NCBI GenBank assembly: GCA_951406725.2 | Contig: OX597822.1 | Location: forward strand, 74,524,001 to 74,588,000 | Direction: 5' to 3' | From: Octopus vulgaris | Taxonomy: Eukaryota | DNA length: 64,000 bases | In this document: one piece after another, positions 15,758-63,650 of the stretch | How positions within the stretch are numbered: position 1 is the first letter of the stretch | Layout of the letters: every line of letters begins with the position of its first letter | Notes under the pieces: model-generated | What the model saw: only the letters and a program-made list of their open reading frames with translations | Told to the model about the DNA's origin: nothing | The model's database searches: none | Program-made: the position numbers and the translations under genes

Positions 15758-16040
15758 AGTTCTATATTTAAGAGACAAGGAATTATGTACATTATTTACA
15801 TTTGATGGGCATATGGCATGGTTAAGAGCACGGGCTGCTAACTCCAAGATTCCGAGTTCAATTCCAGGCAGTGACCTGAATAATAATAATAATAATAACA
15901 TCAAAAAATACCTTAGGAATGAGAACCCAGGTTCGAAATTTCCCCAAGACACCTGAAGAAGGCTGGAGGGTATATCAGCCGAAACGTGTTAACAACAAAC
16001 AAGATAAGAACAAATATCTGTCAAATGTAAATAATGTATA
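15758..16040 (+). mobile_element. tRNA-head/hammerhead element with inverted 5' tail (DHFR intron 3)
   Basis: Same family as 43770; the HHR at 15948-15990 lacks the GTT cleavage triplet. Confidence 0.75.
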
Positions 16041-16917
16041 GGTTGGACAGTTTGATAGGGGCTGGCCAGCTGTAGAACTGCACCATCTGTTTTGGCATGG
16101 TTTCTATAGCTGGATGTCCTTTCTAATACCAACCACTTTACAGAGTGTACTGGGTGCTTTTTATGTGGCGCAGACATGGACATATCTTGTGTAGCACCAG
16201 CACAGCTACTGTTCACATAGTGCCAGCATATGTGCTTTTGATGTGGCACCAGCACCAGTAGATGTAGATTTTTTAGAAGAGGGAGAAATGGTAAATGTGT
16301 GTTGTTTGCACCTTTTGGGTGGGGTGAAGGAATATATATGCCACAGAATCCAGGAGACTAGTCCTATGAGTCTAGGGCTCAGGATGGAAGATTGTTGGTC
16401 CTTTTTTTGTACTATTTCCAAGCAACGTTATTAAATTGAAAATTCCTCAAAAAATTAAGAATCATAGGTAAACAGGCACAGGCATGGCTGTGTGGTAAGA
16501 AGCTTGCTCTCCTGCCATATGGTTTCAGGTTCAGTTCCACTGCATGACATCTTGGGCAAGTGTCTTCTATAGCTTTGGGTTGACTAAAGCCTTGTAAGTG
16601 GATTTGGTTGATGGAAACTGAAAGAAGCCCATCATGTAGATATGTATGTGTGTGTCTGTTTGTCTCCCCCCACCATCACCACTTGACAACCGGTGTTTGT
16701 GTGTTTACATCCCCATAACTTAACGGTTCAGTGAAAGAATTCCTAGGGTCGATTTGTTTGACTAAAACCCTCCATAAAACAATAAAAGTTGATTTGACCG
16801 TTTCCTGAAAACTTGTCTTATTTTGTATAGAACTTGTTTCCCTAAACTTCCTATAGAAATTTATTCACATCTTACTCACCTTTCATTTTCTCTCTCCCTT
16901 TTTTATTCTTCTTCTAG

Positions 16918-17041
16918 CAATGCTCCTGAAGGAGCTCACCTTGCCAGAGATTTAAAAGAAGCTATCGATTTATTCCAAAATGGTTCCATCAAAGATAAAG
17001 TGAACAAGCTTTTTATTATTGGTGGCAGCGGAGTGTACCAA
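16918..17041 (+). CDS. DHFR: DHFR exon 4 (124 nt, NAPEGAHLARDLKEAIDLFQNGSIKDKVNKLFIIGGSGVYQ)
   Basis: FIIGG..VY motif; long pyrimidine tract plus TAG acceptor; GTAAGT donor. Confidence 0.97.
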
Positions 17042-17524
17042 GTAAGTTCCAGATCTTTGGTTTACTTCCTTGTTTTGCTTTCTTTGTTACCTTTATGGCC
17101 TGAAACTGATAGTCAGATCCCAATTACCAACATCTTTAAAACATTATCAGGCGTGGCTGTGTGGTAAAAAGCTTGCTTCTCAACCACATGGTTCCCGGTT
17201 CAGTCTCACTGCTTGACACCTTGGGCAAGCGTCTTCTATTATAGACAATAGTGGGTGGCAAAAATGGATGGATGGATGTTAATATTTAGAACCCTTTTGA
17301 GGAGGTGCCTGAGGACTCTACCCCCAAGGCCCACGGAGGAATAGTGGGTGGGAAAAATAGGTTAACTTTGCTTTGCATCCTTCTGTATTAAAATAAGAAC
17401 CTGTCAGTATAATCAATGATATCCATCACCTAAATTTAAAGTGTACTGCTTATTTTACAAATTATTTAGATGTGTCGGCTAGGATAACAAATGTCTTCAT
17501 ATTTTTGCTTTTCATTTTCTCTAG

Positions 17525-17640
17525 GAAGTTCTCGAATCAAACTACGACATCCGACTTTATCTCACCAGAATACATGCAGACTTCGATGTTGATGTGTTTT
17601 TCCCAGAGTTCGAATCCAAACAATACAAGGAACTCAACAA
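17525..17640 (+). CDS. DHFR: DHFR exon 5 (116 nt, EVLESNYDIRLYLTRIHADFDVDVFFPEFESKQYKELN)
   Basis: LYLTRI...F..D.FFP motif; CTAG acceptor and GTAAAA donor. Confidence 0.96.
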
Positions 17641-17824
17641 GTAAAAATTTTAATTATTACAGGAGAAATTCCACCAAATTAATATTTGTCAGCGTCATCA
17701 TTACAGAGAATTAAATGAGATTATTAGGACAAGATCCTTAAGATTTCTGTGATGGTGCCTAAGCTAATATAAGTTAATTGAAACAAAGTTAATGAATGTG
17801 GAGGGCAGTCTTAGATTTTTACAT

Positions 17825-18999: not shown

Positions 19000-19437
19000 A
19001 CAGTTCTATATTTAAGAATTGAGGAATTATGTACATCATTTACATTTGATGGATATTTGTCCTCATCTTGTTTGTTGTTAACACAACGTTTCAGCTGATA
19101 TACCCTCCAGCCTTCATCAAGTGTCTTGGGGAAATTTCGAACCTGGGTTCTCATTCCTAAGGTATTTTTTAATGTTAGCGTTAGTATTATTGTTGTTGTT
19201 GTTATTATTATCATTATTGTTGTTGTTGTTATCATCATCATTCAGGTCACTACTTGGAATTGAACTCGGAATCTTGGGGTTAGTAACCTGTGCTCTTAAC
19301 TACATAACCTTAGGAATGAGAACCCAGGTTCGAAAAATTTCCCCTGGGGCACTTGATGAAGGCTGGAGGGTATATCAGCCGAAACGTTGTGTTAACAACA
19401 AACAAGATGAGGACAAATATCCATCAAATGTAAATAA
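19000..19437. mobile_element. Inverted pair of tRNA-head/hammerhead elements (DHFR intron 5)
   Basis: HHR(-) 19080-19125 and HHR(+) 19348-19393, both with a TTGATGA core. Confidence 0.75.
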
Positions 19438-21990: not shown

Positions 21991-24229
21991 CATAAGTTTC
22001 CACTAGTTCAACCACTACTGACTTCACCCCTCACTTTTGCACAAACTAGTGAGATTAATGCATTCAGTACACAGCCTGAACATCAGCAGGTTGATATTTT
22101 GTTAGAAAAACACAGGAAATGAACCAGGTATGAATGCTTGCAATAAAGTCACATAAGTAGTTCCATTTCTCTAAAACTTTTGGTTTCGATGTGTATATAA
22201 ACAGATTGGTTGCTTGCTTTCCTGTGATGTTTGCTCATCATCAGTCTGGAGTAGACTGATGATGACCAATGGCTCTGAAATTAATCTCTGGATGCTAGCT
22301 TTGCTAAGTGGAGGTGCTTGTCTACACTTTGAAGACATAAGGACACAGGAAATGTGTCGTGTCCAACAGCAAACGGTGTTTCCTAGGGCTAAATAGCAGT
22401 AGCATTCTTCCCTTTCATGGGACTTTCACATTGACAACATACTATCACTTTAAATATTATCTTGTTTGGGAACAGATGAGTGTTGGGGCAAGGAGAGCAT
22501 CTGACCATAGAAATTCAGCTTCAACATATTCTGTCTGACCCACGCAAACATCAAAAAGCGGGCATTAAATTATGACGATGATGATGATGATGATCTTGGT
22601 TGAAAGAGATAAAAAGGAGTGGTTTGTGCATGAGGACAGAAAAAAGTTAGAAAAGGGAAGTGGAAAAAAATTATCTTGTTCAATATTTTGTACAGAAAGA
22701 TCAAGTTTCTTATCTTTCATTCCTCTCTACTCAAGAAATTGCAATTGAGTTCAGCCTGATATTCTGGATCTAAGAGGTTTGGCATCCTGTTTTCAAGTGA
22801 GTAAGCATGTTGTATTCATGATTTGAATATAAATTGGGTTTCAAATGTCTGTTCATCATCATCATCATCATGATCGTTGTTTAATGTATTTTCCATGCTG
22901 GCATGGCTTGGATGGTTTTTACTCGGGACTGTCAAGCCAGTAGGCTGCACCAGACTCCAATCTGATCTGGCAATGTTTCTACAGCTGGATGCCCTTCCTA
23001 ATGCCAACCACTCCGAGAGTGTAGTGAGTACTTTTTACATGCCACTGGTACAGGAGCCAGTCAGGCAAGCCTGGCATCAATCACATTTGAATCGTGCTTT
23101 TTATGTGCCACTAGCACAAGAGCCAGTCAGGGGGTACTAGCATCGGCCATGTTTGGATAGTGCTTTTTACATGCCACTGGCACAGGAGCCAGTCAGGCGG
23201 ACCTGGCATTGACTGCATTTGGATGGTGCTTTTTATGTGCCACCATCACTGTAGCCAGTCAGGTGGACTTGGCATTGACCACATTTGGATGGTGCTTTTT
23301 ATGTGCCACCAGCACAGGAGCCAATCAGGTGGGCCTGATATTGACTGCATTTGGATGGTGCTTTTTACTTGCCACCAGCACAGGAGGCACTGGCCACAGC
23401 TACGATATTGGTTTTACTTGACTCGACATCTTCTCAAGCATATCATATCGCACAATGCATCAGGGGTACCTTGTATACCATGGAGAATTTCGTTAATATG
23501 GATTGAATGAATATATACATTGGCCCTTGAATTTGTTTTCTCCTCTCCTTAATTTTATATGTATATGTATATTACATATTCCTACTTAAGTCTGTCATAA
23601 GTTTTGTTTATAGAAAATAAGATACTTTTTGCCTTTGTCCAAGAACACAAAGGTAAACATTCTTCTTCACAAATGACTAACTGAGATACTTCATAATGCC
23701 ACATCAGAAATTCCTGTCTCTTTGGAATGTCCTCAATCTCATGTTGTGCATCTCTGCCTCTAGTATCAGTTATCTTTTAACATTTAAATTGGTCACGTCC
23801 TGCTGAAATATCCAACCTGTTTTATGTTCAAACAGGCTAGATCTGGCCATTTACACTACCCCTAAGTCATTCTAAAAATTTTTTTAAAATACATCATCAA
23901 AATCTCAAAGCAGCAAAATATTCTATAATTAAATCAAAACAAAATGTTTAGATAAGAACTGCATTTAATAGAATAATCTGAATTTTAAAGGGTCAACTAT
24001 TCTTCATTTCCCTCCATTCCTTTTTTTTTTTTTTTTTTTTTTTTTATTCAGAGTGGTAGTCTCCATGATATAATAATTTATATGGCATCTCTACCACTAA
24101 CATTCTTTCTATGAGAGTAGAAATTTCTTGGATATAATTGACATGGTGTCTCTGACAACAGGATTAACTGAGTGATCCTCATCCTGCTTTAGGCTGTGGA
24201 AGTCTCCAGAATAAACAACTTTATGGCTT

Positions 24230-24520
24230 TATTTACATTTGATGGATATTTGTCCTCATCTTGTTTGCTGTAAACACAATGTTTCAGCTGATATACCCTC
24301 CAGCCTTCATCAGGTGTCTTGGGGAAATTTTAAACTTGGGTTCTCATTCCTAAGGTATTTTTCGATGTTGTTGTTATTATTAAATGAGAACTCAGGTTCG
24401 AAACTTCCCCAAGACACCTGAAGAAGGCTGGAGGGTATATCAGCTGAAATGTTGTGTTAACAAGATGAGGACAAATATCCGTCAAATGTAAATAATGTAC
24501 ATAATTCCTCATCTCTTAAA
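24230..24520. mobile_element. Inverted pair of the same hammerhead element, head deleted
   Basis: HHR(-) 24273-24318 (CTGATGA core) and HHR(+) 24413-24458 (CTGAAGA core). Confidence 0.75.
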
Positions 24521-25173: not shown

Positions 25174-25912
25174 TCATCATCATCATCATCATTTAGCGTC
25201 CGCTTTCCATGCTAGCATTAGTTGGACGGTTCAACTGGGGTCTGTGAAGCCAGAAGGCTGCATCAGGCCCAGTCTGATCTGGCAGTGTTTCTACGGCTGG
25301 ATGCCCTTCCTAACGCTAACCACTCCGTGAATGCAGTGGGTGCTTTTTACGTGCCACCGGCACGGGGGCCAGGCGAGGCTGGCAACGGCCACGAACGGAT
25401 GGTGCTTTTACATGCCACCGGCACGGGGGCCAGGCGAGGCTGGCAACGGCCACGAATGGATGGTGCTACGTGCCACCGGCACAGGGGCCAGGCGAAGCTG
25501 GCAACGGCCACGAACGGATGCTGCTTTTTACGCGCCACCAGCATGGAGGCCAGTCGGGGCGGCGCTGGCAACGGCCACGATCGGATGGTTCGCTTACTTG
25601 TCACCGGCACTGGTATCACAGCTGCAATTTCCATTTATGTTGATTGACTTCCATTTTGGTTCTGATTTCTGATTTGATTTGGTTTGATTTTCACTTGCCT
25701 CAACGGGTCTTCACAAGTGGAGTTTTGTGTCCCAAGAAGGAAAGGTATGTATAAGTCAACTGGCTACATACCAGGTAGAGGCCACGGATTATGGTCTCAC
25801 TAGTCTTGCCGGGTCTTCTCACGCACAGCATACTTCCATAGGTCTCGGTCTCTAGTCATTTCCTTGGTGAGACCTAAAGTTCGAAGGTCGTGCTTCACCA
25901 CCTCGTCCCAGT
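25174..25912 (-). mobile_element. RTE LINE 3' end with ~60-bp tandem subrepeats
   Basis: WDEVVKHDLRTLGL codons at the 5' end; four to five units of GGTGCTTTTTACGTGCCACCGGCAC...; (ATG)n tail. Confidence 0.8.
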
Positions 25913-28324: not shown

Positions 28325-28363
<39 letters not shown>

Positions 28364-28368
<5 letters not shown>

Positions 28369-28527
28369 TTTATTTAAAAGCAGCAGAAATATAATAAAAG
28401 CTGTTACTCAGAGTTTCACGTTCCCATTCGTCGGACAGTTTTGTTAACAAAACTGACCAACAAATGAGAACGTGAAACTCTGAGTAACAGCTTTTGTTAT
28501 ATTTCTGCTGCTTTTAAACAAAGCATA
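28364..28527. repeat. ~164-bp indel-free palindrome centred on TTGTTAACAA (28441-28450)
   Basis: The arms pair directly with a few mismatches; each arm carries a hammerhead-like motif. Confidence 0.9.
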
Positions 28528-29272
28528 TTACTCTACCTCTGGTATTTTGAGTACTCTTTTTTTCCACCCGCGGCGGCGATGGTGGTGGGATGGCGGCTGA
28601 GGCTGCAATGATGATGATGATAATGACAATTACACCATCTCGGTTCTCTTACATCTCAAGCACTTAAGTGCTATGTAAGTCATTGTCCACATAAGTAACA
28701 TTTGTCATTATTTTTAAACGTACTATTAATCATTATATTTAGAGAGGGATTTCTCTTGGTCTCTGTGGTCTTTGACAGGATCTGATGACTACTGGAAAAA
28801 GAAGATTATTTTAATCCTAGTAGTGACTAATTTTGCACAGTGAGTACAATCAACACTGTCATTTGCTATTCCATTAACCCTTTTGTTACCAATCCAACTG
28901 AAACTGCTTCTGGCTCTGAGTACAAATGTCTTGTTTCCATAAGTTCTGAATTAAAATCTTCCACCAAACCTTAGTCACAATTTATGTTCCTAGCACTAGC
29001 TTAATGATGACTAAATTATTTTACTAAATTCTTTGTTATATTTAAAATTAATTGAAAGAAACACAGAGCATCTCAACAGAAATATGGTAACAAAAGGGTT
29101 AAAATATATAATAGAGAAACAATTCTTAACCCTTTTGGTACCAACCCAGCTGAAACCAGCTCTGACTCTGTGGTACAAATGTCTTGTTTTCATAAGTTTT
29201 GAATTAAAATCTTCCACCAAACCTTAGTCACAAAACACTGGGCATCTTAACAGAAATACAGTAACAAAAGGC

Positions 29273-29595
29273 ACAGTTCTACATTTAAGAGATGAAGAAT
29301 TATTTACATTTGACGGATATTTGTCCTCATCTTGTTTGTTGATATACCCTCAGGTGTCTTGGGGAAATTTCGAACCTGGGTTCTCATTCCTAAGGTATTT
29401 TTCGATGTTATTATTATTATTATTATTTAGGTCACTGCTTGGAATCAAACTCAGAATCTTTGGGTTAGTAGCCTGTGCTTCTAACCACTATGCCATATGC
29501 CCAAGACACCTGATGAAGGCTGGTGGGTATATCAGCCAAAACGTTGTGTTAACAACAAACAAGATAAAGACAAATATCCATCAAATGTAAATAAA
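29273..29595. mobile_element. Inverted pair of the same hammerhead element
   Basis: Tail(-), internally deleted HHR(-), tRNA-like head(-), then HHR(+) 29505-29550 with GAAA mutated to AAAA. Confidence 0.7.
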
Positions 29596-29802
29596 GTAAG
29601 GAAAGGGTTAAACATTTACCTACTTTAGATTTGTGAGCAACATACCTAATATCTCCATGGAAGTGTCGTTAAGGAACTTGCTCTGCAACCATGTAATTTG
29701 GTGTTCAGTATCATCGTGCATGAAGCACCTTGGGCAAGTCTCTTTTACAGTAGTCTCAAACTTCTTAGTTATGCAACCATACTTGTGAACTTTTTGTAGT
29801 TA

Positions 29803-29939: not shown

Positions 29940-32394
29940 CCAAACAATTATTCTGTGCTGATGAAGAGAAATAACCCAGAAATCGCGATGCACAGATATT
30001 GTTTTGAACTGAGTTGAGGTGCTAGATTCCCTTGTTCGAAAATGTAAGGACACAGATCGTGTCATATAGCCAGCTGGAGATGTCTCCTGGGGCTAAATTA
30101 CAGCAACATTAGTCCTAAACCAGGACTGCCATGTTATGTTGGCAAATAATCTTTACTACAAAGTACTGTTGCTGAATATCTCTTGTTGTGAGATTAAAAA
30201 ATAGTAATTTTCTAATATCCAAGAATGCTTACTGCATGAAACCTAAATAGTAAATTGGACATACTTGGTGTACAAAGTTCAAGATTTTTAATTGATTAAT
30301 TAAAATATATCAGCAGTGATAATAACAATAAATATCTAAATGATTAGTGGAGGTGAGTGGCTTAGTGGTTGGGGTGTTGGACTCATGATTATAAGATTGT
30401 GGTTTCAATTCCTGGACTGGGTAATGCATTGTATTCTTGAGCAAAACACTTCATTTCACATTGCTGTGGAGGTGCATGGCTTAGTGGTTAGGGTGTTGGA
30501 CTCATGATCCAAAGATTGTGGTTTCAATTCCTGGACCCATTGATGCATTGTGTTCTTGAGCAAGACACTTCATTTCACATTGCTCCAGTCCAGGCGAAAA
30601 TGAATAATCCTGCAATGGATCAGCATCCCGCCCTGGTGGGGAATATATACGCCACTGAAACCAGGAAACTGGTCCTTATGAGCCTGACATGGCTCAAGAA
30701 GGTTACATTTATTTATTTATCTAAATGATTAATGTAAGACAATTAGCTGGTAGAGTCGTTAACACACAGGGCAAAATGCTTACTGGTATTTCATACACCT
30801 TTTCACTCTGAGTTCAAATTTTGGCTAGGTCAGCTTTGCTTTTCATCTTTTCAGGGTCAATAAAATAAATACCAGTTGTGTACTGGGGTCGATGTAATTG
30901 ATTTATCCTCTCCCCTGAAATTGCTGGCCTTGTGTGAAAATTTTAAACTAATATCTAAATCATTAATGTAAAGCAACAAGCTAACAGAATCATTGTTGGG
31001 CAAAATGCTTAAAGGAATTTTGTCTATCTATACATTCTGGGTTCAAATTCCACCAAAGTCGGCATTGTTTTCCATCCTTTTGGAGTTGAAAAAATAAATT
31101 GAGTCTGAGCACTGGGGTTGATGTAACTGACTTCCCCACTTCCCCCTGAAATTGCTGACCTTGTGCCAGATTTTGAAGTTAACGTCTAAACCAGTGCTTC
31201 TCAACCAGGATCCATATGACCTCTGGGGGTTCATATAAGGCTTTTGGGGGCCCAAGCAAGGAAAATAGTAAATTGGGGACAAATGGTAGTACTTTAGGAG
31301 TCTGTGTATTTATTGCAAGAATCAGCTAGGTTTCATTCTCTGACATTTCACATCGATTAATATGTTTCTGGCCTCCGGAACATGTTCTCTCAGAGATTTC
31401 TTTTGCAAACCTCAAAGGTGCAGGAGTGGCTGTGTGGTAAGAAACTTGCTTACCTACCACATTATTCCAGGTTCAGTCCCACTGTGTGGCACATTGGGCA
31501 AGTGTCTTCTACTATAGCCTCAGGCCGACCAAAGCCCGGTGATTGGATTTGGTAGGCAAAACTGAAAGAAAACTGTCGTATATATATATATATATATAGG
31601 TGTGACTGTGTGGTAAGAAGCTTGCTTCCCAACCACATGGTTTCGAGTTCAGTCCCACTGCATAGCACCTTGGGCAAGTGTCTTCTACTATAGCCTTGTG
31701 CCAACCAAAGCCTTGAGAATGGATCTGGTTGATGGAAACTGAAAGAAACCTGTCGTATATATATATATGTTTGTGTGTCTGTATTTGTCTCCCCCCCCAT
31801 CACTTGACAACTGATGTTGGTATGTTTATGTCCCCATAACTTAGTGGTTCGGCAAAAGAGACCGATAGAATAAGTACTAGGCTTACAAAGAATAAGTCCA
31901 GGGGTTGATTGGTTTGACTAAAATTGGTGCTCCAGCATGGCTGCAGTCAAATGACTGAAACAAGTGAAAGAATAAAAGAATTTATATATATATGTGTGTG
32001 TGTATGTATGTATGTATGTATGTATCTGTCAGTCTGTGCGATGTGAGGTGAAGAGAATGGCTCATTAGTACTACATCACATGGCCATTACAATAAAGAGA
32101 AATTGAATGGAACAAATAAGTGCCAGAGGGCAAAGGAGACACAACTGCGTAGAATTATTAAGAGAACATTTATTGATATATTAACATGTGTGCGTCATGT
32201 ATACAGAATAGACAAGCCATCATGGGAACAAATTGTATGTATGTGTGAGTGTTAAGAACATATAATGATGGCAACAAGAAGGAACAGTGAAAGAGTCTCT
32301 AGCCATTGAAGTGAAGAGTAAGTTCATTGACACAAGGAAGATAATGCCAGTTCATAGTCAATAGTACACAGTAGGTGAAATGTTGAAACCCCAC

Positions 32395-32725: not shown

Positions 32726-34272
32726 TGTAGGTGAAATACTGTATCAAGAAGTTGCGGCCATGATGCTGAGCATGAAGTTGTGGCTGTGATGCTTCTGCCT
32801 GGTTCACTTGTACAGGAGTTTGTACAGGTTGTATATTCGCTGTTGATCCATGGTGAAGTAATTCACAAACAGTGAACTGTTGGAACCTGGGTGAGTTGCT
32901 TGCAGAGCTGTGTACGTAGGGATGATGTTGATGATGTTAAGAAGGACATGATAGTGGTGACGAGGACGGAGGTTGCCGTAATGCTGTTTGATGAAGTTGG
33001 CAAGTCTTAACATAACTGCTGTGGAGTTGTCACTGGAATTGGATGTATCTTTGTAGTCAGTGGCTAGATCTTAAAAGGTCTGGAACCAAAGACCTCGGAA
33101 CAAGGAAAAACTGAGTTTTTATAAGGAGCTGTAGACTTAAGCAGGGTTGTAAACAGGCTGTCCCACCTGATCCTATTTAGGGCTTCCAACTGGTTATACA
33201 GGGCAAGTTGGCACAACAGAGTAAGAGACAAATTGCATCAATGCCAACCAATCAGAGTAGTGGACACAATGTGATCCAAATAGCGGCCAAAGGCTAGCTG
33301 CTCCCTGCTACGTTCGAATGCACATATATATAATATATAGGAGAGTGGAATTTCACCTGAGTCTATGCTACATATCTATGTATTTGTGGGTCTGTGTTCG
33401 TCCCTCCACCATCGCTTGACAACCGAAGTTGGTGTGTTTGCATCCCCATAACTTAGCGGTTCAGCAAAAAGAGACCCATAGAATAAGTACAAGGCTTACA
33501 AAGAATAAATCCTGGGGTCAATTTGTTTGACAAAAGATGGTGCTCCAGCATGACTGCAGTCAAATGACTGAAACAAGTCTAAAAAAATAAAATAAAATGA
33601 ATGGATGAAAAGCAAAATTTGAAAAAAACTGTAAAATCAGTCATTAAACATCGAATGGTTTTGAGGGTCCACCAGAATAAATCGGTAATGAAAAGGGTCT
33701 ATAAGTGAAAAATGGTTGGGAATCCTTCAACTAAATGATTAGTTGTGATAACAAAGAACAAATAATTAAAAAAAAGCAAGGTGAGACAACCCCGAAAATT
33801 TCATGAAATATAGAATATAGTGAGGATCGATAAAGCAAAAAGCAAAGTAATTAGAACATTTCTATAAGAGATGAAAGTAATAACTGTACTATAAAGTAAT
33901 GCTTGTCGACACTTCAACATGACTGTTCCGTACGAACCGACCTAACTACCATTTTTGAACCCCAAAAGGGCACCTCCTCTTGCTTGTTATCAATGCAACC
34001 TGTACGTGAATGTGTCTGGGGTTATCAGTTGTGCTAGCATATTGACTCCCCTTCACATGTTATTTTTATTTAATTTTATTCTGGTGGGGTTGTCTCGGTC
34101 TTTTCTGACTATTATTGGGATCGTTCAGGTAATGATCATTTTCACTACTCAAGATATATATATATATATATATATATAAAGTTAATTCAAGCAAGAAAGC
34201 ACAAAAAAAAACACAGCAACGCGAGGACGTGGAACAAATATAGTATTATTGGACGCTCAGGAAAGAAGGAGG

Positions 34273-34307
34273 GTTTAACGTTTCGAGCGGAGCTCTTCGT
34301 CGGAAAC
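34273..34307 (-). ncRNA. Hammerhead-like motif with variant core CCGACGA (same family as 58107)
   Basis: Minus strand GUUU-CCGACGA-A-GAGC(UCC)GCUC-GAAACGUU/AAAC. Confidence 0.55.
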
Positions 34308-34455
34308 ATAGGAGAAAGAAAGATCCAGAGAAGGGAAGACAGATGGGAAAAAATCTCCAACGGTACACACGAGGTCACATTTTGAAAGACCGGAAGGAAA
34401 AGATATATATATATATATATATAATGTGATACAAGTCTTTGGTGTTGCAATTGCA

Positions 34456-34549
34456 TGCGGCTGAAGAGGGCTTTAAACTATCTGTTATGTCGATTTTACA
34501 TTGATGTAAGAATAAGTTGTTTTATAAAGCTCGAAACGTGTGTACCGCG
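34456..34549 (+). ncRNA. Minimal type I hammerhead ribozyme motif, intact core
   Basis: UGCGG-CUGAAGA-GGGCUUUA(long loop)UAAAGCUC-GAAAC-GUGU-GUA/CCGCG. Confidence 0.8.
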
Positions 34550-35467
34550 ACATCCTTTGTGTTCTGTTTTTTATTTCATTTGATACATATATCCTCTCAC
34601 CTCTGCTACTAACTGGCATATACAGGTGCTTATACTTATCAAGTATTCACCCTGAATTTATATATATATATATATATATATAAAGATATGCCGATATTTT
34701 TTATTTATTCATTGTTATTATTATTGTTTTTGCGGAGTTTCAGTAACACCCGATAATAAACAAACAGAAAAAGGAGTTGTGCTTTTTTTTTTTCTTTAAG
34801 TATTCTGTTTCGTACATGGATATTAGATTCTCGAAGATTTTCTCTTTTCTCCCCAGAATTAAATTTTTTTCTTTTTTTCTCCATATTTTATACTCCAATT
34901 CTGTCACTTTTCTTTCCCCATGAAGTACTAATAATTATTCCGAAACACTTTTTTTTTGTGTTCTTTACGGCATCAAGCAAGTATGCTACCTGTTATCTTA
35001 TAATTTTTGCTCGTATTATTGACTGTTACGAAACCATCATTAGTTTCCTCGTAGTTTGCTGTTTCTTGTAGACTAGACATGTGTAAGAAGAGATAACGCC
35101 GGTGAATGATGAGAAATATTTAAATAATAATGAAAGAGGAGTAATGAGTGAGTGAGAAAGAGAGGGGGTAGTGAAATGACAGAAAAAATAGGAAAAATTA
35201 AAAAGAATGAAAGAAGAATGAAATGAACAAAATAAAACCAAAAGGGTGTGTGAACGGAAAAAATGTAAAAGCTGCGTAAGGAGCGATGTGAATTAATGAG
35301 AAATTAGAGGGAGAGAGAGAGAGAGAGAGAGAATATGGAAATGAGAGTAAGACCAGAGAGTGAGGAAGGGTGGTGACAAAGTGAGGAAGATAGAGTAAGA
35401 GACATTTGTATCAACATATTGCAACGTTGAAGTCCTATGTTACGGACGTCGTCAAGTGCGAGAGACC

Positions 35468-43714: not shown

Positions 43715-43767
<53 letters not shown>

Positions 43768-43769
43768 AT

Positions 43770-43931
43770 ACAGTTCTATATTTAAGAGATGAGGAATTAT
43801 GTACATTATTTACAATTGATGGATATTTGTCCTTATCTTGTTTGTAGTTAACACATTTCGGCTGATATACCCTCCAGCCTACATCAGGTGTCTTGGGGAA
43901 ATTTTGGATATTTTTATTATTACTATTATTA

Positions 43932-43979
<48 letters not shown>

Positions 43980-44264
43980 GGTCACTGCCTGGAATCAAAC
44001 TCGGAATCTGGGTTAGTCGCCTGCACTCTTAACCACTACGCCATATGCGCGGGCATATGGCGTAGTGGTTAAGAGTGTGGGTTACTAACGTCAAGATTCC
44101 GAGTTTGATTCCAGGCAGTGACCCGAATAATAATAATAATAATAACAACAACAACATTGAAAAATACCTTAGGAATGAGAACCCAGGTTTGAAATTTCCT
44201 CAAGACACCCGATGAAGGCTGGAGGGTATATCAGCCAAAACGTTATGCTAGCAACAAACAAGAT
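43770..44264. mobile_element. Head-to-head pair of tRNA-head + (AAT)n + hammerhead elements
   Basis: Order is tail(-), HHR(-) ~43850-43892, (ATT)n, tRNA-like head(-), centre ~44050, tRNA-like head(+) with TGGCGTAGTGG and GTTTGATTCC boxes, (AAT)n, HHR(+) ~44204-44250; inserted in (TA)n. Confidence 0.8.
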
Positions 44265-44279
44265 ATATATATATATATC

Positions 44280-44921
44280 TGATATGTATAGTATTAAATA
44301 TCCATCACGGCTGATCTTACTAATCGGTTTCGCGTAAAGAATACAATCGAGTATTAGGTAACAATCTGATTATATAACTTTATGCTCATCAGAGTTAATA
44401 TGGTGCTCCCGCGGAGATGGAGTGTGTGGTATGTGCAGCGGTGTAATATGTATAATTTTTTCCAGGGGTGTAGGTATATATAGCTGTGTTCATTGGTTTG
44501 TTTTCTTTCTGTAAATGATAAAGTTGTGGGGGAGGATGTTTATGTTAGCATATGGTGTGTAATGTGTGTATGGGGGTGGTCTGCGTATATGTTGGGATAC
44601 AATTTGTGTGAAGGGGTATGTGTTGGGGTGGTAGAAGAGTTTACTTTGTGGGGTGTCTGCCTTATAGGGTTGTGCATTGGTGTGTGCTTTGGTCAATCTC
44701 TTTTTGCTGGGCTCAAGGGCTTTGGTGAAAGGGCAAGGATTAAACATCTCACTCTTGCTATTCAGGTAAACATCCAGGTGTTGGGTCCCTTTTAAAATTG
44801 CCGTCTTGTCAGCCAGGCATAATCTGCCCTTCCTGCTGCTACTGAAGTACAGTTTTCATCTTTTTAGGGTCTTCCACTTTATGCTGAACTCCGTGGCCCT
44901 TTCTTTCAGATGTGCTATATA
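44280..44921 (-). mobile_element. Penelope-like element (PLE) 3' remnant: GIY-YIG endonuclease C-terminal region plus 3' region
   Basis: From 44921 the minus strand translates YIAHLKERATEFSIKWKTLKR*KLYFSSSRKGRLCLADKTAILKGTQHLDVYLNSKSEMFNPC, resembling the PLE I.W.I...C.LCL.EK..I...LN.RSE...C tail; one internal stop. Confidence 0.7.
44319..44395 (-). ncRNA. Hammerhead motif 3' of a Penelope-like ORF remnant
   Basis: Minus strand ACU-CUGAUGA-GCAUAAAG(long loop)CUUUACGC-GAAAC-CG-AUU/AGU; slightly decayed. Confidence 0.65.
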
Positions 44922-46849: not shown

Positions 46850-47440
46850 CATTTTCATGCAGTTCATCTTGAGACCTACTGCAGAGCTTTTCATGTCGAG
46901 CTCGATAAAAAACAGAAAGGCGCCAGGGAAAGATGGTATAACATCAGAGGTTGTTAAAGTCAGGCAGAGAGCAGCACTGGAAAATCCTCGCTGAGCGATT
47001 CTCACACTATCTGGATGAGGGAAGAATTCCCTTGCAGTGGAAAGAGTCAAATACCATTCTGCTATATAAGAAGGGTGATAAAGAAGATCTAGGGAAGTAT
47101 TGGCCCATATGCCTGCTGTCTCATGTGTACAAGCTGTTCACAAAGATAATTCTGAACAGGTTGTCACGTCATCTCGACGAACAACAACCAAGGGAGCAAG
47201 CCAGCTTCCGGAAGAACTACAGCACGATGGACCATATATTTACTCTAACACAACTGCTTGAACGAGCGAATGAGTACAAGCTGCCTCTTTGTGTTGCATT
47301 TGTAGACTGAGAAACCCTTCGACAACATTGAAACCAATGCAGTGCTGAACTCGCTGCAGAGGCAAGGAGTTGAGGTGCAATATGTGCAACTGCTCAAGGG
47401 GGCAGATTCCGGATGCACCACCGACATAACTCTCCAAAAC
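46850..47440 (+). mobile_element. RTE-like reverse transcriptase N-terminal fragment (disrupted)
   Basis: KAPGKDGITSE and WKESNTILLYKKGDKEDLGKYWPICLLSHVYKLFTKII...EQASFRKNYSTMDHIF...FVD. Confidence 0.88.
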
Positions 47441-47967: not shown

Positions 47968-48648
47968 CTATAAATATATCATCATCATCATCGTTTAACA
48001 TCTGCTTTCCATGCTAGCATGGGTTGGACGATTTGACTGAGGACTGGCAAACCAGATGGCTGCACCAGGCTCCATTCTTGATCTGGCAGAGTTTCTACAG
48101 CTGGATGCCCTTCCTAACACCAACCACTCTGAGAGTGTAGTGGAGGCTTTTACGTGCCACCGGCACGAGGGCCAGTCAGGCAGTACTGGCAACGACCACG
48201 CTCAAATGGTGTTTTTTACATGCCACCTACAAAGGAGCCAGTCCAGCAGCACTTGCAATGACCTCACTCGAATGTTTATTCACATGCCACCGGCACAAGT
48301 GCCAGTAAAGCTATGCTACAAATTAGCATTTAGTGTGGCTATGTACCATCAATAGCAACTTCATTCCTGGTTGACTTGAAAAAATGAATTTTTTAAATTT
48401 TAATCTTTTCCATGAGAGAGAGACGGAGGAAGGGAGGGAGAGAAGAGAAGGTAAAGAGAAAATACAAACATTTTAACGTAACAAAGAAACGGAAAAGATC
48501 AACCAGTAAGTGGTGAGCTTAACATAGCAAGTAACTCTTTGTTGTGGTTATAGCTTTAAGAAATCTCAATTTATGCATGTCAGACTGCATGCATGAGCAC
48601 ACACACACAAAATAAATAAAAAATTGAGTACAAACTTAAGCTAATTCA

Positions 48649-52872: not shown

Positions 52873-55819
52873 AGCAAAGTAGCTATTAGCAACAGAAGCA
52901 CCCTTTGTAATGAATGTTAATTAGAACGTTCAACTTAACACGGATATGTTGTTAAGAACAGCATAGACTGCAGTAATCTTTATGAGATATCCTCTTGTAT
53001 AGACATTAGGTTCTATAAATAACATAAATCATATCTATACTTTTTATAACACCTAATATCTATCAATGTTCAAAATGACACATCCAAGTTAAGAAGGATG
53101 TACCAATTAATATTCAGTCATTTATTAAATTGATTTAAGTATTCAATCTTTTAGTTTTAACTTTGATATCCTTTAGTGCTGTACTTCTAAACCAGGGTCC
53201 AAATAAGATTTTGTTGTTAAAATTTATAAGCAATAAATTGCTTGTACTTACTTCTACAAAACATAAAATATTTTATAGTGTTTTTTTTATGCAATTCTTA
53301 ATAATGTTTAATCATAAAAATACCACAGGATTTTTTTTTATATAATAAGGTGCAGGAGTGGCTGTGTGGTAAGTAGCTTGCTTACCAACCACATGGTTCC
53401 GGGTTCAGTCCCACTGTGTGGCACCTTGGGCAAGTGTCTTCTACTATAGCCTCAGGTCGACCAAAAGCCTTGTGAGTGGAATTGGTAGACAGAAACTGAA
53501 AGAAGCCCATCATATATATGTGTGTATATGTTTGTGTGTCTGTGCTTGTCCCCCTAACATCACTTGATAACCAATGGTGGTGTGTTTATGGCCCTGTAAC
53601 TTAGCGGTTCAGCAAAAGAGTATGATAGAATAAGTCCTGGGGTCGATTTGCTCGACTAAAGGGGTGCTCCAGCATGGCAGCAGTCAAATGACTGAAACAA
53701 GTAAAAAAGTAAAGGGGGTGCTGAAAAGTTCCTGGCATTGGGTAAAAGAAAATACAGGAGGATCAGTTAATTATGATTTTATTCAACATATTCCCCTCTC
53801 AGATTCACATATTTATTACAGCAGTCCTTCAGTTTTTCTAAGCCCTATAAAAGAACTTGGAAAGTTAGGCCTCCAACCAGGCCTTTAGTGATACGATACC
53901 GTTAAAGCCAGGAACTTTTCAGCACCCCATTGTACATCGAATGACTATGGGGATCTAGTAGAGTGAAATAGGAATCAAAGGGCTCCATAGACAAAAAACA
54001 GTTGAGAACCACTGTTTTAGGGTGCTAAACAAAAAATGTTACAGATTTTCTTTTATAATGTTTTTGCCACCTGACTAGCTCCTGTGCCCGTGACATGTAA
54101 AAAGCACCATTCAAGCATGGTTGATGCCAGTGCTGACTGACTGGCTCCTGTGCTGGTGATACATAAAAAGTACCATTCAAGCATGGTTAATGTCAGTGAC
54201 ACCTGACTGGCTCCCATGCAGATGGTATGTAAAAAGCATCATTTGAGCAAGATCAATGCCAGTGCTGCTTGACTGGCTCCCATACTGGTGGCACATAAAA
54301 ACCACCACTTGAGCATGGTCGATGCCAGTCCCACCTGACTGGCTCCTGTGCCAGTGGCATGTAAAAAGCATCATTCGAGTGTGGTTGTTGCCAGTCCTGC
54401 TTGACTGGCTCCCATGCCGGTGACATGTAAAAAGCACCATTCAAGCGTGGTCGATGCCAGTACTGCCAGTGGCACGTAAAAAGCACCCCCTACACTCTCA
54501 GTGGTTGGTGTTAGGAAGAGCATCCAGCTGTAGAAACCTTTCCAGATCAGATTGGAGCCTGGTGCAGCCCCCCGGCTTGCCAGTCTTCAGTCAAACCATC
54601 CAACCCATGCCAACATGGAAAGCAGATGTTAAACGATGATAATGATGATGATGATAGTTTATTTCTTTTGCATTCTTATATTTTCATAGACTTTTGATTA
54701 AAACAGTTCTTTTTTAAATTTCCAAAGTCTTGTTGTTTGCTTGCTTGAAGTTGGTTGTGTGGTTAGATGCAGGCATGGGTGTGTGGTTAAGAAACTTACT
54801 TTGCAGCTAAGTGGAACAGGGTTCAGTCCCACTGTATGGGAACATTGCAAGTGAATTTGCTAGACAAAAACTGTGTGGAAGCCCACCATATATGTGTGTG
54901 TGTGTGTACACATACTCCACTTTGCAACTGGTGTTGGTTTGTTTATGTCCCCATAACTTGTTGCTCAGCAAAATAGTCCGACAGAATAAATACCAGGCTT
55001 AAAAATAAGTACAGAGGTCAATCTGTTTGGCTTAAAAAGAAAACCTTTAGGATAGTGCCCCAGCATGGCCACAGTCCAATGAATGAAACAAGTAAGAAAA
55101 ATGCCTCAGAGACACAGTTATGTTCTTTAAAGTCAAACTTCAACAGGTTTGAATGGCACAAAATATCCTGATGACTTCCATTAACTGTCCATGTTGTGTG
55201 CTTTCAATCGATGTCAGAAATATTTGATTAATTTGAAACACAGGAGTTCAAGTCCAAGAGGGAGTCGATGTCGATGGTACCATAAATTGATAAATCAATG
55301 TCTGCGTCAATACTGAATCAGTCACTTCTTGTTTTCATGTATTGTGTTTGAGAAGTTTTGATGAGGTTATCAATATCTGGTGTGTTATTTCTTTTGTATT
55401 TCTTTTTTAATTTGCCTTGATGGATGTATTTTTAGCCACACCTGTAATTATTTACTTAGATGCATCTGCTGCTAACTGTGCAATTATTGAATTCTGAAAA
55501 CCTGTACCAGATGTTATCTGAACAGGTGACTTTGATAAGTATATTGCCAGTTGCCAGGGTTTCTGAATGACATCAAAGCTGTTGGTAGATAGACTTTTTT
55601 ATGACATCCAACAGCTGCTATTTATTGTTCATGGTATTGCACAATACTGTTTAGACTGCAATAGTTAAACTAAAGAACTAAATGGGGAAAACAAAAGCAT
55701 ATATAACTAAGCTCAGCTTGGTGGGGGACAATTACTAATAATGTGTCAGGAGTTTTGAAGTAAGCAGAGAATGGTACCAACACCAAACAGAGAGTTTGAT
55801 AGAATAATCAGTCTGAAGT

Positions 55820-57920: not shown

Positions 57921-57966
<46 letters not shown>

Positions 57967-58106
57967 TATATATATATATGTTTATACACACACACACACA
58001 CACATATATATATTTACCTATATATATGTACATATATATATATATATAATCATTGGCGATTTTTTTTTCCCTCCGTCTTCCCTTCCTTGGATCTTTCCTT
58101 TCCTAT

Positions 58107-58141
58107 GTTTCTGAAGAAGAGCTTTGCTCGAAACGTTAAAC
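58107..58141 (+). ncRNA. Minimal hammerhead ribozyme motif within a ~190-bp repeat (58050-58240)
   Basis: GUUU-CUGAAGA-A-GAGC(UUU)GCUC-GAAACGUU/AAAC. A second copy of the repeat lies on the minus strand at ~34180-34385. Confidence 0.7.
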
Positions 58142-58632
58142 CCTCCTTCTTTTCTGAGTGTCCAATTATACTATACTTGTTCCACGTCCTCATGTTGTTA
58201 TGTTTTCTCTTTGTGTTTTCATGTTCAGATTAACTTTATATATATATATATGTATGTATGTACATATATGTGTGTGTGTGTGTGTCTACCTGTCTGTTTG
58301 TCACTGTTTCTCACTGCTCCCCTACCACTTGACAGCCAGTGTTGGTTTGTTTACACCCTCATAACTTAGCCATTTGGCAAAAAAAAAAGACTAATAAAAT
58401 AAATACCAGATTTATAAAAGCTATGAGTACTGGGGTTGACTTGTTCGACTAAAACCCTTCAGTGTGATGCCCCAGCATGGCCACAGTCCAACAACTGAAA
58501 CAAGTAAAAGACAAACGATATCCTGAAGGTATCAATTGCTATACATAAGAGATAGACTTCCTAGGGCATCGAGAGGCAAATAAATGATGTGTCCTGGTTC
58601 TGTTTCTAATCATATGCCGTTTATTTTGACAG

Positions 58633-59863: not shown

Positions 59864-61756
59864 ACTTCCATCTATCTATCAGCGATTTGCAACAATGAAT
59901 GCATAACAACAAACCTGTGGCAGTCCTGTGCCACAGGACTTAATGAGTAAAGTACATTGATTATCTATTGTTAAGTTCATGAAGACTTGTTTTGCAGTGC
60001 GGCTGATAATGTTAGCTTGAGATGCATATAGCAGGTGGTGACAATCATGCTGTTTCCAATGATATAAATCATGTGTAACAGCCACGGTTGTGACAATTGC
60101 TTATTTTTGAAAGTATATGCTTAGCTTTGTTCGATTTAAAAAAAAATTTTGTTGTCATATGTTTTTAAAGGTATTTGAGCCGATTCTTAGCAGGAAGCTT
60201 TATTTTACTTATGAATTGGGTCAGGTGTTTTAAATGTTGATAAAAGAATGTGCTGAGGTGTCATTTGTATGAGATTATATTTAGTTCAAAAAAGGAGACA
60301 CATTAGGTTGTTATTATTACAGACAAGGAAAAACAAATATTAGACAACTGTTCCTTGACTTTCATCCCATTGTAATTGGAAGAGCTGATTAGAGGCTTTT
60401 TATCAAGATATTGTGGGCGGAGCTTGTTAGGTGGCAGTCATAACTGAGGCAGTGATTAGGTGAAAGATTTAGCAAGAAGTGAGCTTGTTGCTATTTCAAA
60501 TATCTCAAAGCAGCTAATATTCTTTTCTACTCTAGGCACAAGGCCCAAAATTTTTTGGGGGGGGGGGCCAGTCGATTAGATCGACCCCAGTACGCAACTG
60601 TTACTTAATTTATCGACTCTGAAAAGATGAAAGGCAAAGCCGACCTCAGTGTTGTTTTGAACTCAGAACATAAAGACAGACAAAATACTACTAAGCATTT
60701 CTCGCCTGGCATGCTAACGTTTTTGTCAGCTCACCACCTTCAGTAGCAAGAATATTCTTTTCTACTGTAGACACAAGGCCCAAAATTTTGTAGGAAGGGC
60801 CCAGTTGATTAGATTGACCCCAGAACGTTTCTGCCAGTTCACTGCCTTCAAAGCAGCTAGTATTGACACAATAGTCAAGTGAACAACTCCTAATAAGGCA
60901 TGTAGCCTAGTGGTTAAGGTGTTGCATTTAGAATTGTATGGTCACGGTTTCAGTTTCTGAATCGGGCAATGTGTTATATTCATGAGCAAAACACTACATT
61001 TTACATTACTCCAGTTCACCTAGTCGTGAGTGAGTAAACCTGTGATGGACTGGTATTTCATCCAGGGAAAGTGTGAATGTGTGTGGCTTAGTGGTTCATG
61101 ATCATAAGGTCGTGAGTTCAATTCCCGATGTTGCATTGTATCCTTGAGCAAGGCACTTTATTTCACATTGCTCCCGTCCACTCAGCTGGTCAGAATGAGT
61201 ATTTCAAAGGGCCAACCTTGTCACACTCTGTGTCATGCTGAATCACCCTAAGAACTACAGTTAAAGGTATACATGTCTGTGGAGTACTCGGCCACTTGCA
61301 TGTTAATTTCACAAGCTTCCACACAGTTTCTGTTCTACTTCCCAAGGTGGTGTACAGTGGAACTGAACCAGAAACCACAGTTGCAAAGCAAGCTTCTTTA
61401 CACGACCATGCCTAGGGTGTGGTATAAGCTTTATTTCTAATAGGTCAAACAACCAAATAAAGGCTTTGGGTGCTGTCTACAGACTTTGAGATAGCAAGCT
61501 AGCTATAAGAAGTGCTTGTACGTCATCACATAGCTGGTATCAGATTAGAATTGGATTTTGAGCTCAATGCTATCTCAATCTTATACATACCAACTAGCTG
61601 GAGTTCACACCTGCTTCTAATCACACAGACTCCATGTTTTAAAATGATCTGAATTAAAACCTTCCACCAGTTTAATTCCTAAACACCTTCCAATTATTAG
61701 AAATATTGCATTTCTAAATCTATCAGAGAGACTTATACAGTAACAGCATTATAAAG

Positions 61757-62184
61757 TGATGGTTTGTTGCCAACCTAATGTGGCAATCCCAGGAAAGGGA
61801 AGAATGCTACTGCTATTTAGCCCCAGGAAACATTGTTTCCAGTTGGCTATGTGACACAAGCGTTCTGTGTTCTTAAGTTTTCAAACAGGGGAGATAAGCA
61901 CCTCCACTCAGCAAAGCCAGCACCCAGAGACTAGTTTCAGAGTCATTGCTCTTCATCAGTCTGGTGTAGCTTGGCCTTGCTAGTTGTCAATGCTTATTTG
62001 CCTTTGAAAACTTATAGAATACCAAGTGAAATAAGTTCACTGATCTACAAAATTAAACGTAATGCATTTCTACAGAATGCTTGTGCCACATAGCCAACTG
62101 GAAACGGTGTTTCCTGGGACTAAATAGCAGTAGCATTCTTCCCTTTCCAGGGACTGCCACATTAGGTTGGCAACAAACCATCAC
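61757..62184. mobile_element. Hammerhead-bearing element with ~110-bp inverted tails (PLE pseudo-LTR-like)
   Basis: 61757-61868 and 62072-62184 are reverse complements flanking the HHR; related degenerate copies at ~22235-22452 and ~29950-30110. Confidence 0.7.
61910..61981 (-). ncRNA. Type I hammerhead ribozyme motif, intact core
   Basis: Minus strand: CCAGA-CUGAUGA-AGAG(CAAUGA)CUCU-GAAAC-UA-GUC/UCUGG. Stem III is the palindrome ACUAGU; stem I extends via AGCAAGGCCA/UGGCUUUGCU. Confidence 0.85.
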
Positions 62185-62299
62185 CTTCCTATTAGTTTAT
62201 ATCCTAAATATCAGCTTAATAAAGATGTGGTTATTTCACTACAAAAAAGCAGTGTATTTCAACAGGAATATGGTAGTAAAAGAGTTAATTCTGTTCTAA

Positions 62300-62915
62300 T
62301 CATTATCATCATTTAATGTCCGTTTTCCATGCTGGTATGAGTTGGACGGTTTGACAGGAGCCACACCAGGTTCCTTAGCCTTTTTTTATTTGGTTTTACA
62401 GAGTGTAATGGGTGCTTTCCATGTGGCACCATCACCAGTGATTTTTACATGACATAAGTGTCCTTCATGAGCAAGAATTACCAAGGTGGTTTTAGGATAT
62501 CAATTCTGTTGTGGTAGGCAAGTCATCTTGAATCCAGTGACATGCCATATACCTCGGTCTTTTGTCATCTTCATTATAAGGCTCAGCATTTTGAGATCGC
62601 CTTCAATACTTCATCTCATGTCTTCCTCTTTAACAACTTCCATCCACTTTAAGTCTTCATCACTTCTTTATGCAATCCTCCTCATCCATACACATCATAT
62701 GGCCAGCCCAGCACAGTCTTCTTTCTTGCTCACTGCATTTAATTCTTCCAATGCACGACCACTCTAACATATGTACACTGACATTACACATCCAGCAGAG
62801 CATACCAGCTTTGTTTCTCTCTAGTTTTTGCATGTCCTCTGCATTCAGGGCCCACATCGCACTTTCATGTTGCATTGCAGTTTTAACACATGCATCATAC
62901 AATCTTCCTTTCACT
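62300..62915 (-). mobile_element. RTE LINE 3' fragment
   Basis: KGRLYDACVKTAM...RRLCWAGHMMCM peptide plus tail. Confidence 0.8.
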
Positions 62916-63239
62916 AGAAGAGAGAGAGAGCTTTGGTTGCCAACAGATATTATTATTTATATTGTTGTTTTAATGACTATTATTGGCAATAAAGGATGAT
63001 GGTTTATTGATTAAACATAATTTGCATCCCTGGGAGAATGTTGTCTGAAGAAATGTCACCTTTGTAAACTGCTTATTTTATACATTCTCATTCCTAAGGT
63101 ATTCTATAGTGCTAAACTGCTAAGCTACAGGGACATAAACAAACAAACACAGGTTATAGAAACAGTAGGGGAGGACAAGCAAAAACACAAAGACAAGCAT
63201 ACACTCACATATGTACACACACACACTGATGTTATTTCC

Positions 63240-63650
63240 CAAGTCCCTGCCTGAGATTGAACTCAGAATCCAAGGGTTAGTAGCCCACGCTCTTATTCAC
63301 TACGCTATATGCCCATAGGCAATTATAGAGTGAATTTTGGGCTTATAAACCTAATATTTTATCTTTTCTTAATACTGGTTCCCATATTACATTCATAACT
63401 GCATTAGATCTGTTTAGGAGGTTATTGTGTCAAAGTATATGTGCAGCCTCTTTTAATAACATCAGAAAACAAATACTTTAAGAATGAGAACAGCATACTC
63501 CTTTACTCAAATAAAGGGTTGGGTTCGAAATTCTGATGAAGGCTGGAGAATACACCAGCCAAAACGTTGTGGTAACAACAAACAAGGTGAGGACATATAT
63601 CCGTCCAATGTAAAGAACGTACATAATTCTTCATCTCAAAAATATAGAAT
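63240..63650. mobile_element. Older divergent copy of the tRNA-head/hammerhead family just upstream of DFPase exon 3
   Basis: tRNA-like head(-) ~63243-63313; HHR(+) CTGATGA-A-GGCTGG(AGAATACA)CCAGCC-AAAACGTT at 63533-63568; family tail to ~63650. Confidence 0.65.

Follow-up and report, generated by a model that had tools for sequence, protein, structure and literature searches.

Hammerhead repeats in a 64-kb stretch of the Octopus vulgaris genome include the terminal repeat of a coding Penelope-type element with a tRNA-like head and a recurrent triplet deletion

Are the hammerhead ribozyme motifs that crowd a single stretch of octopus DNA real, and, if so, what kind of element brings them in? 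The stretch considered here (the window) comprises 64,000 nucleotides of Octopus vulgaris contig OX597822.1, positions 74,524,001 to 74,588,000. A preliminary description, made from the letters alone, had placed motifs at 17 positions in about six repeat families and read them as non-autonomous, retrozyme-like relatives of Penelope-like elements (PLEs). We find genuine type I hammerheads at these positions, sorted into six repeat families, called A to F below. Family A is the pseudo-long terminal repeat (pLTR) of an element of Penelope/Poseidon type that is old and codes for protein; its clade is provisionally read from a linker criterion rather than from a tree. Taken as a whole, we think it fairly probable that family A is a coding Penelope element whose tRNA-like head likely acts as promoter and whose recurrent loss of the cleavage triplet is likely a trace of ribozyme cutting.

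All 17 positions align to a type I hammerhead, 10 on the plus and 7 on the minus strand, and BLAST of the window against itself yields the identical grouping into six families. Family A holds nine of the listed motifs (15948+, 19080-, 19348+, 24273-, 24413+, 29505+, 43850-, 44204+, 63533+) and, outside the list, a broken arm at about 29330. Family B has 34273- and 58107+, family C has 22250+, 61921- and the diverged 29952+, and families D, E and F have one each (28401-, 34456+ and 44319-). A type I descriptor with a perfect core matched three times in the window and in none of 12 dinucleotide shuffles; with at most one core mismatch it matched seven times, against 0 to 2 (mean 0.33) in the shuffles, so the density check that the preliminary description had proposed came out in its favor. 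In a random genome sample of 800 kb (80 stretches of 10 kb from a genome of 2.8 Gb), nine perfect-core matches stand against none in four shuffles. In four of the random-sample hammerheads stem III exceeds 2 nt, and in three of these it is a palindrome, though the descriptor set the first pair only. The sample also contains at least four further hammerhead families with perfect cores (L065, L118, L137, L138), and one more (L073:2151, L076:6313, L134:7243) with intact stems and a common CUGUUGA core (A6U).

Family consensuses were built by homology, from 19 copies each for B to F and about 30 to 110 for A. In all of them stems I and II pair and stem III is self-complementary, as had been described, and they carry the CUGANGA/GAAA core and NUH site of minimal type I hammerheads, with U4C in family D as the exception. 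Paired stems and a retained core are thus found in the consensuses, but not in the majority of window copies, which are damaged: in 3 of 17 (34456, 58107, 61921) the core, the stems and the cleavage triplet all survive, and 15948 and 43850 lack the triplet. Among unselected family A arms, 9 of 44 are intact in all three respects. Two other proposed checks gave nothing. At E<=1, no Rfam hammerhead family matched the window, scans of 43750-44450 and of eight family A loci gave none either, and the 44 arms of family A showed no compensatory double change in 484 pair-cells. The latter is expected where copies decay neutrally after insertion and hence is no refutation.

Exact-flank patterns matched 4,956 times genome-wide for A and 3,736 times for B, with no match for reversed controls, in agreement with the high copy number that had been proposed. 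Since the exact pattern fits only 5 of 32 examined A arms, about 30,000 arms is a very rough figure for that family. The random 800 kb held four insertions of A, eight loci of B, three of C, seven of D, none of E and one of F; by this comparison the window, which has six A insertions, lies above the average. Family A matches are several-fold denser at the start of C1 (first 5 Mb) than the genome average. Could chance matches in repetitive, AT-rich DNA explain the motifs? Most individual copies are broken and the Rfam models give no score, but the shuffle controls in the window and in the random 800 kb, the intact homology-built consensuses, the thousands of copies and the position of the motifs in the pLTRs of RT-coding elements (RT, reverse transcriptase) rule this out, and we find it hardly conceivable. 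The predicted function of the motifs is self-cleavage as a dimer. For two of the six families they are the ends of Penelope-type elements, and for the rest this is likely.

The short form of family A starts with a 75-nt head, which is followed by (AAT)n, then by the hammerhead and finally by a tail. Endonuclease-coding DNA lies upstream of the head at L002, at L095 and in the window (Table 1), and in 27 of 29 other loci selected for such coding DNA it runs straight into the head. Walking upstream led to a consensus unit of 2,661 nt with an open frame of 835 amino acids (aa), ordered as head (1-75), (AAT)n, ATG at 125, hammerhead (154-199), RT, thumb, endonuclease and stop, with the next head 29 nt further on. 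The predicted cut, after position 194, falls in codon 24; the hammerhead is contained in the first 25 codons, and the final 160 nt of the short copies are the start of the open reading frame (ORF) itself. RVT_1 matches occur in real family A copies, and database homologues (52-68% identity) carry RVT_1 and PF26215. The C-terminal GIY-YIG endonuclease was identified from motifs, with no Pfam score, and a search of PDB sequences returned weak RT matches only. No CxxC linker finger separates RT and endonuclease in the consensus. At L272 the frame is open from the ATG position across the hammerhead for 207 codons, L271 approaches a pLTR-ORF-pLTR arrangement, and in L272 and L226 a head precedes the ORF. 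The Penelope connection had been seen correctly, but A and F both lead upstream into RT/endonuclease coding sequence, within the window too, and these two families cannot be called non-autonomous. Another PLE coding remnant in the random sample (L083:2-1644) is 27-31% identical to the family A protein.

The insertions, too, are those of an endonuclease-bearing PLE, for which an inverted 5'-truncated partner and a 30-40-nt tail at one end have been described (PMC8557442). An adjacent inverted partner accompanies 29 of 39 family A copies and 27 of 43 arms in a second set, a tail on both arms was seen once among the 39, and 3' ends fall into two clusters, at 243-259 (27/43) and 275-287 (14/43). 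Target duplications measure 13-15 bp; they clearly exceed a random null at two window sites and are borderline at two others. ORF linkage, insertion signature and paired 3'-end clusters are known biology. A tandem retrozyme is ruled out: the window contains no tandem array of hammerheads, tandem copies number 1 of 39 for A and 0-1 of 19 for each of B to F, and head-to-head is the usual arrangement, so that the term "retrozyme-like" had to be given up. Family A looks inactive now, with copies mostly decaying neutrally.

One of two features that set family A apart is its head, which the preliminary description had overlooked. Judged by the usual A- and B-box patterns, it has an intact A box (8-18) and an intact B box (51-61) at tRNA spacing, and up to 48-50 of its 75 nt match tRNAs of the genome (best Arg, z about 7) in a comparison set of 35 distinct sequences from 30 loci with incomplete isotypes. 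It is also where copies tend to begin. Of 43 arms from the beginning of the match list, ordered by position, 22 end inside the pLTR, 16 end at the head (-13 to +8) and 5 extend 117-757 nt into the ORF; hence 16 of the 21 arms that reach the head stop there. A further 22 arms were left out because they had been fetched as pairs or are deleted. With all 65 arms included, head-stop and read-on arms number 27 and 5, and in a set chosen by 3' similarity 22 and 1. A single pLTR consensus, with no alternative allele, is common to 28 ORF-linked and 54 head-start copies, although the latter were chosen by similarity and hence look less diverged. From this shared consensus, the apparent short interspersed element (SINE) appears to be the element's own short product: it has the 5' head with A and B boxes of a tRNA-derived SINE and is no separate non-coding lineage. 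Finally, the sense strand of the 2,661-nt unit has no TTTT, where 2.9 are expected (P 0.024-0.029). We compared 80 distant metagenome relatives (26-42% identity), a set that lies apart from the 52-68% homologues; 24 of them have frames of at least 300 aa, and in these ORFs TTTT occurs 106 times against 91 expected, two lacking it entirely, and none of the 24 is followed by A and B boxes. The head is therefore a likely promoter, at which the RNA would start, and RNA polymerase III (Pol III) would be the simplest enzyme to use it.

Several observations weigh against this picture of a coding element transcribed from its head. No young intact copy is found among the 50 matches longer than 500 nt (83-95% identical to the consensus), and for families B to E, with 19 loci each, neither tblastn with the family A protein nor a shared upstream extension revealed a coding partner within 1.5 kb. 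Ala and Cys tRNAs come nearly level with Arg, and the head was not called a tRNA by cmscan in the window, in 43750-44450 or in eight family A loci, nor by ARAGORN in the window. GGGG runs are likewise absent from the unit (P 0.28), and the T4 test is one marginal P on a consensus. A frame of two codons at position 7 precedes the ORF, and an uncapped Pol III RNA would translate poorly. The small palindrome at the head start could stall the RT or make it fold back. In RNA sequencing data (three unstranded raw-read runs under a related species label, not known to be the species of the window), the pLTR is at least 100-fold deeper than the ORF on both strands, but 87-89% of reads run into unlike flanks and no pile-up marks a start or an end; the pattern is one of read-through from scattered copies and is silent on promoter and cleavage. 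One contig run likewise gave mostly read-through, with no accumulation at ends.

Two other accounts of the head draw on these points. It may be a captured passenger, with transcription driven by an internal RNA polymerase II (Pol II) promoter or with copies ending where the RT stalls or folds back on the palindrome. Penelope of D. virilis uses an internal promoter in its pLTR like that of long interspersed elements (LINEs) (PMC2377424), an ORF that needs translation favors a capped RNA, many inversion junctions lie at the palindrome, and 5' ends of family B are fairly clustered too without any tRNA head. Yet the boxes have stayed intact although the cloverleaf has decayed, copies pile up at tRNA position 1, and T4 runs are missing across 2.66 kb, and we judge this account unlikely, noting that it partly overlaps with a Pol III promoter because both polymerases could act. 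The short tRNA-headed copies may instead stand apart, as a non-coding SINE or retrozyme that depends on Penelope enzymes, the ORF-linked copies then being chimeras in which the SINE took the place of a Penelope 3' end. That 38 of 43 arms are short and ORF-free, that Schistosoma has a hammerhead-bearing Pol III SINE in Sm-alpha (PMC6765202), that short copies with intact boxes could seed more, and that B to E yielded no ORF would all suit such an origin. It is largely ruled out, and quite improbable in our estimate, by the one consensus that short and long copies share and by the identity of the last 160 nt of the short copy with the ORF start; moreover, the head is present in 27 of the 29 endonuclease-selected loci and precedes the ORF in L272 and L226.

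The second feature of family A that stands out is a deletion at the predicted cut site. Positions 192-194, exactly the cleavage triplet, are lost in 13 of 92 arms that had not been picked with a deleted query, and this is the commonest indel of the whole unit. The corresponding loss affects 8 of 3,298 copy-sites (0.24%) across the 113 sites that share this 2-nt microhomology, and about 2% at longer repeats. The first 100 genome matches include six with three, three with five and two with two nucleotides missing, all placeable at the bond. Comparing 15 deleted with 78 intact arms, we found no linked substitution (best uncorrected P about 0.03). Opposite-strand neighbors within 750 nt of deleted arms gave 14 deleted/intact pairs, 5 with both arms deleted and 3 deleted/other, a few of which may be separate insertions. 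The absence of a linked variant and the mostly discordant arms argue against a single source copy and for recurrent origin. The triplet deletion is likely a trace of ribozyme cutting while the element was being copied, and it fits an RT that finishes the 3' cleavage product and re-anneals on the GU before the cut.

What speaks against a cleavage scar is that 100 matches of family B are free of deletions at that family's own cut site, which means that scarring is no general trait; that no end at the cut was seen in 28 ORF-linked copies; and that in PAc, a reconstituted Anolis element, cleavage was dispensable in vitro and no RNA ends were reported at the cut (PMC11167929). It could instead arise when the RT, copying an uncut but folded RNA, slips at the foot of stem I, when DNA polymerase slips on the imperfect GT/GTT repeat once the copy is inserted, or from a minor source copy, and we take this seriously, at a little under even chances. 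The site is an imperfect repeat with periods of 2, 3 and 5 nt, which, like the unscarred family B, slippage would accommodate, and uncut RNA is the main template in PAc (PMC11167929). Of the partner arms of deleted arms, 5 of 22 are deleted too, slightly above the base rate of 14%, and RT slippage at the folded junction is compatible with all tests run. The low rates at comparable microhomologies (0.24%) and at longer true repeats (about 2%) tell against ordinary slippage, however, and the lack of a linked variant together with discordant arms tells against one source.

If the head is a promoter and the deletion a trace of cleavage, the life cycle of family A might run as follows. The RNA would begin at the tRNA-like head. 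The protein would nick DNA and the RT would start at a pair of internal sites near the beginning of the ORF, at about 250 and about 282, by the mechanism described for Poseidon (PMC11167929), which would leave two 3' ends and a one-sided tail. Priming beside the 5' pLTR would let the RT run off the 5' end of the RNA and yield a 250-285-nt copy from the head, and priming at the 3' pLTR would yield copies that extend into the ORF; the 5' ends at the head suggest that short copies are such run-off cDNAs, primed a short way into the ORF. The head-to-head pairs may then form when two cDNAs are joined end to end. In a minority of events, the hammerhead may cut the RNA, as a dimer or with help from protein, and an RT jumping the cut on the GU microhomology would delete the triplet. 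The strongest version, in which a captured tRNA promoter is served by Pol III from end to end, the pLTR makes the element's own SINE, and about one in eight copies is scarred by a germ-line cut and an RT jump, is possible but doubtful.

Many hammerhead-bearing PLE fragments in this genome are ordinary in themselves and of an already known kind. Dispersed minimal hammerheads from truncated PLEs have been described in metazoans, where, as in the window, thousands of type I motifs fall into several families with a palindromic stem III, an extra base before stem II (A and B here) and opposite-strand pairs 100-700 bp apart; against that background, family D differs by its U4C core and 3-bp stem II and otherwise in nothing essential (PMC4209133). 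The closest relative of family A in organization is PAc, of the Penelope/Poseidon group, which shares a single ORF with RT and, at its C terminus, a GIY-YIG-type domain, lacks the Neptune linker finger, and has an inverted 5'-truncated partner (PMC11167929, PMC8557442). Its hammerhead likewise overlaps the ORF start, and it has two internal priming sites and a 30-40-nt one-sided tail (PMC11167929). Family A is unlike PAc in that a tRNA-derived segment carrying A and B boxes opens its pLTR and is where most copies begin, in its recurrent triplet deletion, and in a cut 70 nt after the ATG instead of 26 (PMC11167929).

Partial parallels for the head exist elsewhere. Sm-alpha and Sj-alpha of Schistosoma also place a Pol III-type promoter before a type I hammerhead (PMC6765202, PMC8490949), but Sm-alpha is described as non-coding and tandem, whereas family A codes for protein, inserts head-to-head and has its head and hammerhead as terminal repeat. 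The TRIMp3 elements Cassandra, Helenus and Ajax have a Pol III promoter derived from a small RNA in their terminal repeat; they are non-autonomous LTR elements whose autonomous partners are argued to need Pol II (PMC10886601), and family A is an autonomous PLE. Non-LTR retrozymes of metazoans have type I hammerheads related to PLE pLTRs, in tandem units that each carry one, and tandems are rare here (bioRxiv 10.64898/2026.07.22.740005). In the literature as searched, we found neither an autonomous PLE with a tRNA head nor a scar at the cleavage site, and these two features go beyond the published record to that extent; Repbase, Dfam, SINEBase, an octopus SINE paper of 1994 (cited in PMC4824008) and supplements, which were outside the scope, may list the element. 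The words "hammerhead" and "ribozyme" are absent from the main text of a 2026 octopus repeat annotation (PMC13282606). Penelope hammerheads cut poorly and one reconstituted element needed no cleavage (PMC4209133, PMC11167929). A deletion fixed at the scissile bond in thousands of copies, if that is what it is, would allow cleavage in vivo to be counted and would give a direct assay by cDNA sequencing of active against dead ribozymes. A Pol III head in an autonomous terminal repeat, if true, would show one way for a SINE to arise out of its own partner, and a tandem neighbor would no longer be needed as the source of a promoter.

Of the remaining families, F belongs to a second element, of which it is the 3' end; the motifs suggest a Neptune-like clade. 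Broken RT, thumb and endonuclease fragments lie upstream of its hammerhead (L322, L325/L440 and the window), which we take to be of Neptune type, and its homologue carries PF26215. Published Neptune PLEs share RT, thumb and endonuclease upstream of the hammerhead as well as (TA)n targets (PMC8557442); F is represented by broken fragments only. Inverted partners accompany 0 of 19 copies of B, 12 of C, 10 of D and 5 of E, and the ends of B to E are (TA)n. With no coding partner found in their 19 loci each, the label "non-autonomous" may still hold for B to E. In family D, the source copy carried U4C, which is present in 11 of 19 selected and 4 of 6 random copies and in the consensus, to which the window copy is equal. 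Its hammerhead combines a 3-bp stem II and GNRA-like loop with a 9-nt stem III (28401-28438; L340-L358), and its activity is doubtful, unless it is a natural core variant. Beside one family F copy, L440:3784-6887 contains a single-exon frame of 465 aa, presumably resembling a G-protein-coupled receptor, and helicase frames that we take to be Helitron-like.

Table 1. Hammerhead-bearing insertions in the window and their parts
Feature	Position	Strand	Remarks
Family A insertion	15756..16038	+	inverted tail arm 15756-15808 (-), head-to-3' arm 15807-16038 (+)
Hammerhead of insertion 15756..16038	15948-15990	+	cleavage triplet missing
Family A target duplication	15747 and 16038		15 bp (14/15)
Family A head-to-head pair	19000..19437		- arm 19000-19303 with tail, hammerhead 19080-19125
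Second arm of pair 19000..19437	19307-19437	+	hammerhead 19348-19393
Family C copy	22251..22452	+	damaged hammerhead 22251-22291
Family A head-to-head pair	24229..24520		arms 5'-truncated; hammerheads 24273-24318 (-), 24413-24458 (+)
Family A target duplication	24217 and 24519		13 bp, perfect
Family D palindrome	28363..28528		- arm hammerhead 28401-28438; + arm 28453-28490 damaged
Family A head-to-head pair	29273..29598		- arm from head start, hammerhead partly deleted
+ arm of pair 29273..29598		+	hammerhead 29505-29550, G12A
Diverged C-like copy	29953..30110	+	hammerhead 29953-29996, stem I swapped; stem III an 8-nt palindrome, G at cut position
Family B copy	34156..34353	-	hammerhead 34273-34307, U4C in this copy; end is (TA)n
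Family E copy	34424..34655	+	intact hammerhead 34457-34548, long stem II; flanked by (TA)n runs
Family A pair	43770..44264		two near-full pLTRs joined at tRNA-like heads
arm of pair 43770..44264	43770-44048	-	hammerhead 43850-43892, triplet deleted
+ arm of pair 43770..44264	44051-44264	+	hammerhead 44204-44249
Family A tRNA-derived head	44051..44125	+	A box head 8-18, B box head 51-61, then (AAT)n
Family F copy	44296..44900	-	hammerhead 44309-44400, long 3' untranslated region, broken Neptune-like endonuclease C-terminus 44490-44855; inserted in 3' end of family A pair 43770..44264
Family B copy	58063..58259	+	intact hammerhead 58107-58141; flanked by (TA)n runs
Family C head-to-head insertion	61752..62180		- arm intact hammerhead 61924-61964; short + arm 62072-62180
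Family A insertion	63232..63649		- arm with head 63232-63314; endonuclease C-terminus before head, 63319-63456
+ arm of insertion 63232..63649	63533-63649	+	diverged hammerhead 63527-63573

Some details of the window deserve mention beside these features. Both arms of the pair at 19000 share C3U, as if from one template or converted. Hammerhead elements are nested or abutting in two places, with B and E meeting across a (TA)n run (34156-34655) and F lying within A (43770-44900). Two exons of a dihydrofolate reductase (DHFR) gene (16918-17042 and 17527-17641, plus strand) have DHFR matches in PDB, and reads support their splice joint and expression; an intron further upstream in this gene, the last exon of which was not found, probably contains the family A insertion at 15756. 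A 119-bp repeat occurs in two copies at 30347-30584, the second with an Rfam tRNA match (30470-30539, 32.6 bits), and is probably a SINE head. Arrays of 61-66-bp units lie inside another abundant repeat family (23027-23386, 25339-25610, 45055-45227, 48155-48311 and 54068-54467), and LINE-type RT fragments were found at 42463-43478 and 46942-47310, one of them ending in a near-perfect hairpin (43393-43478).

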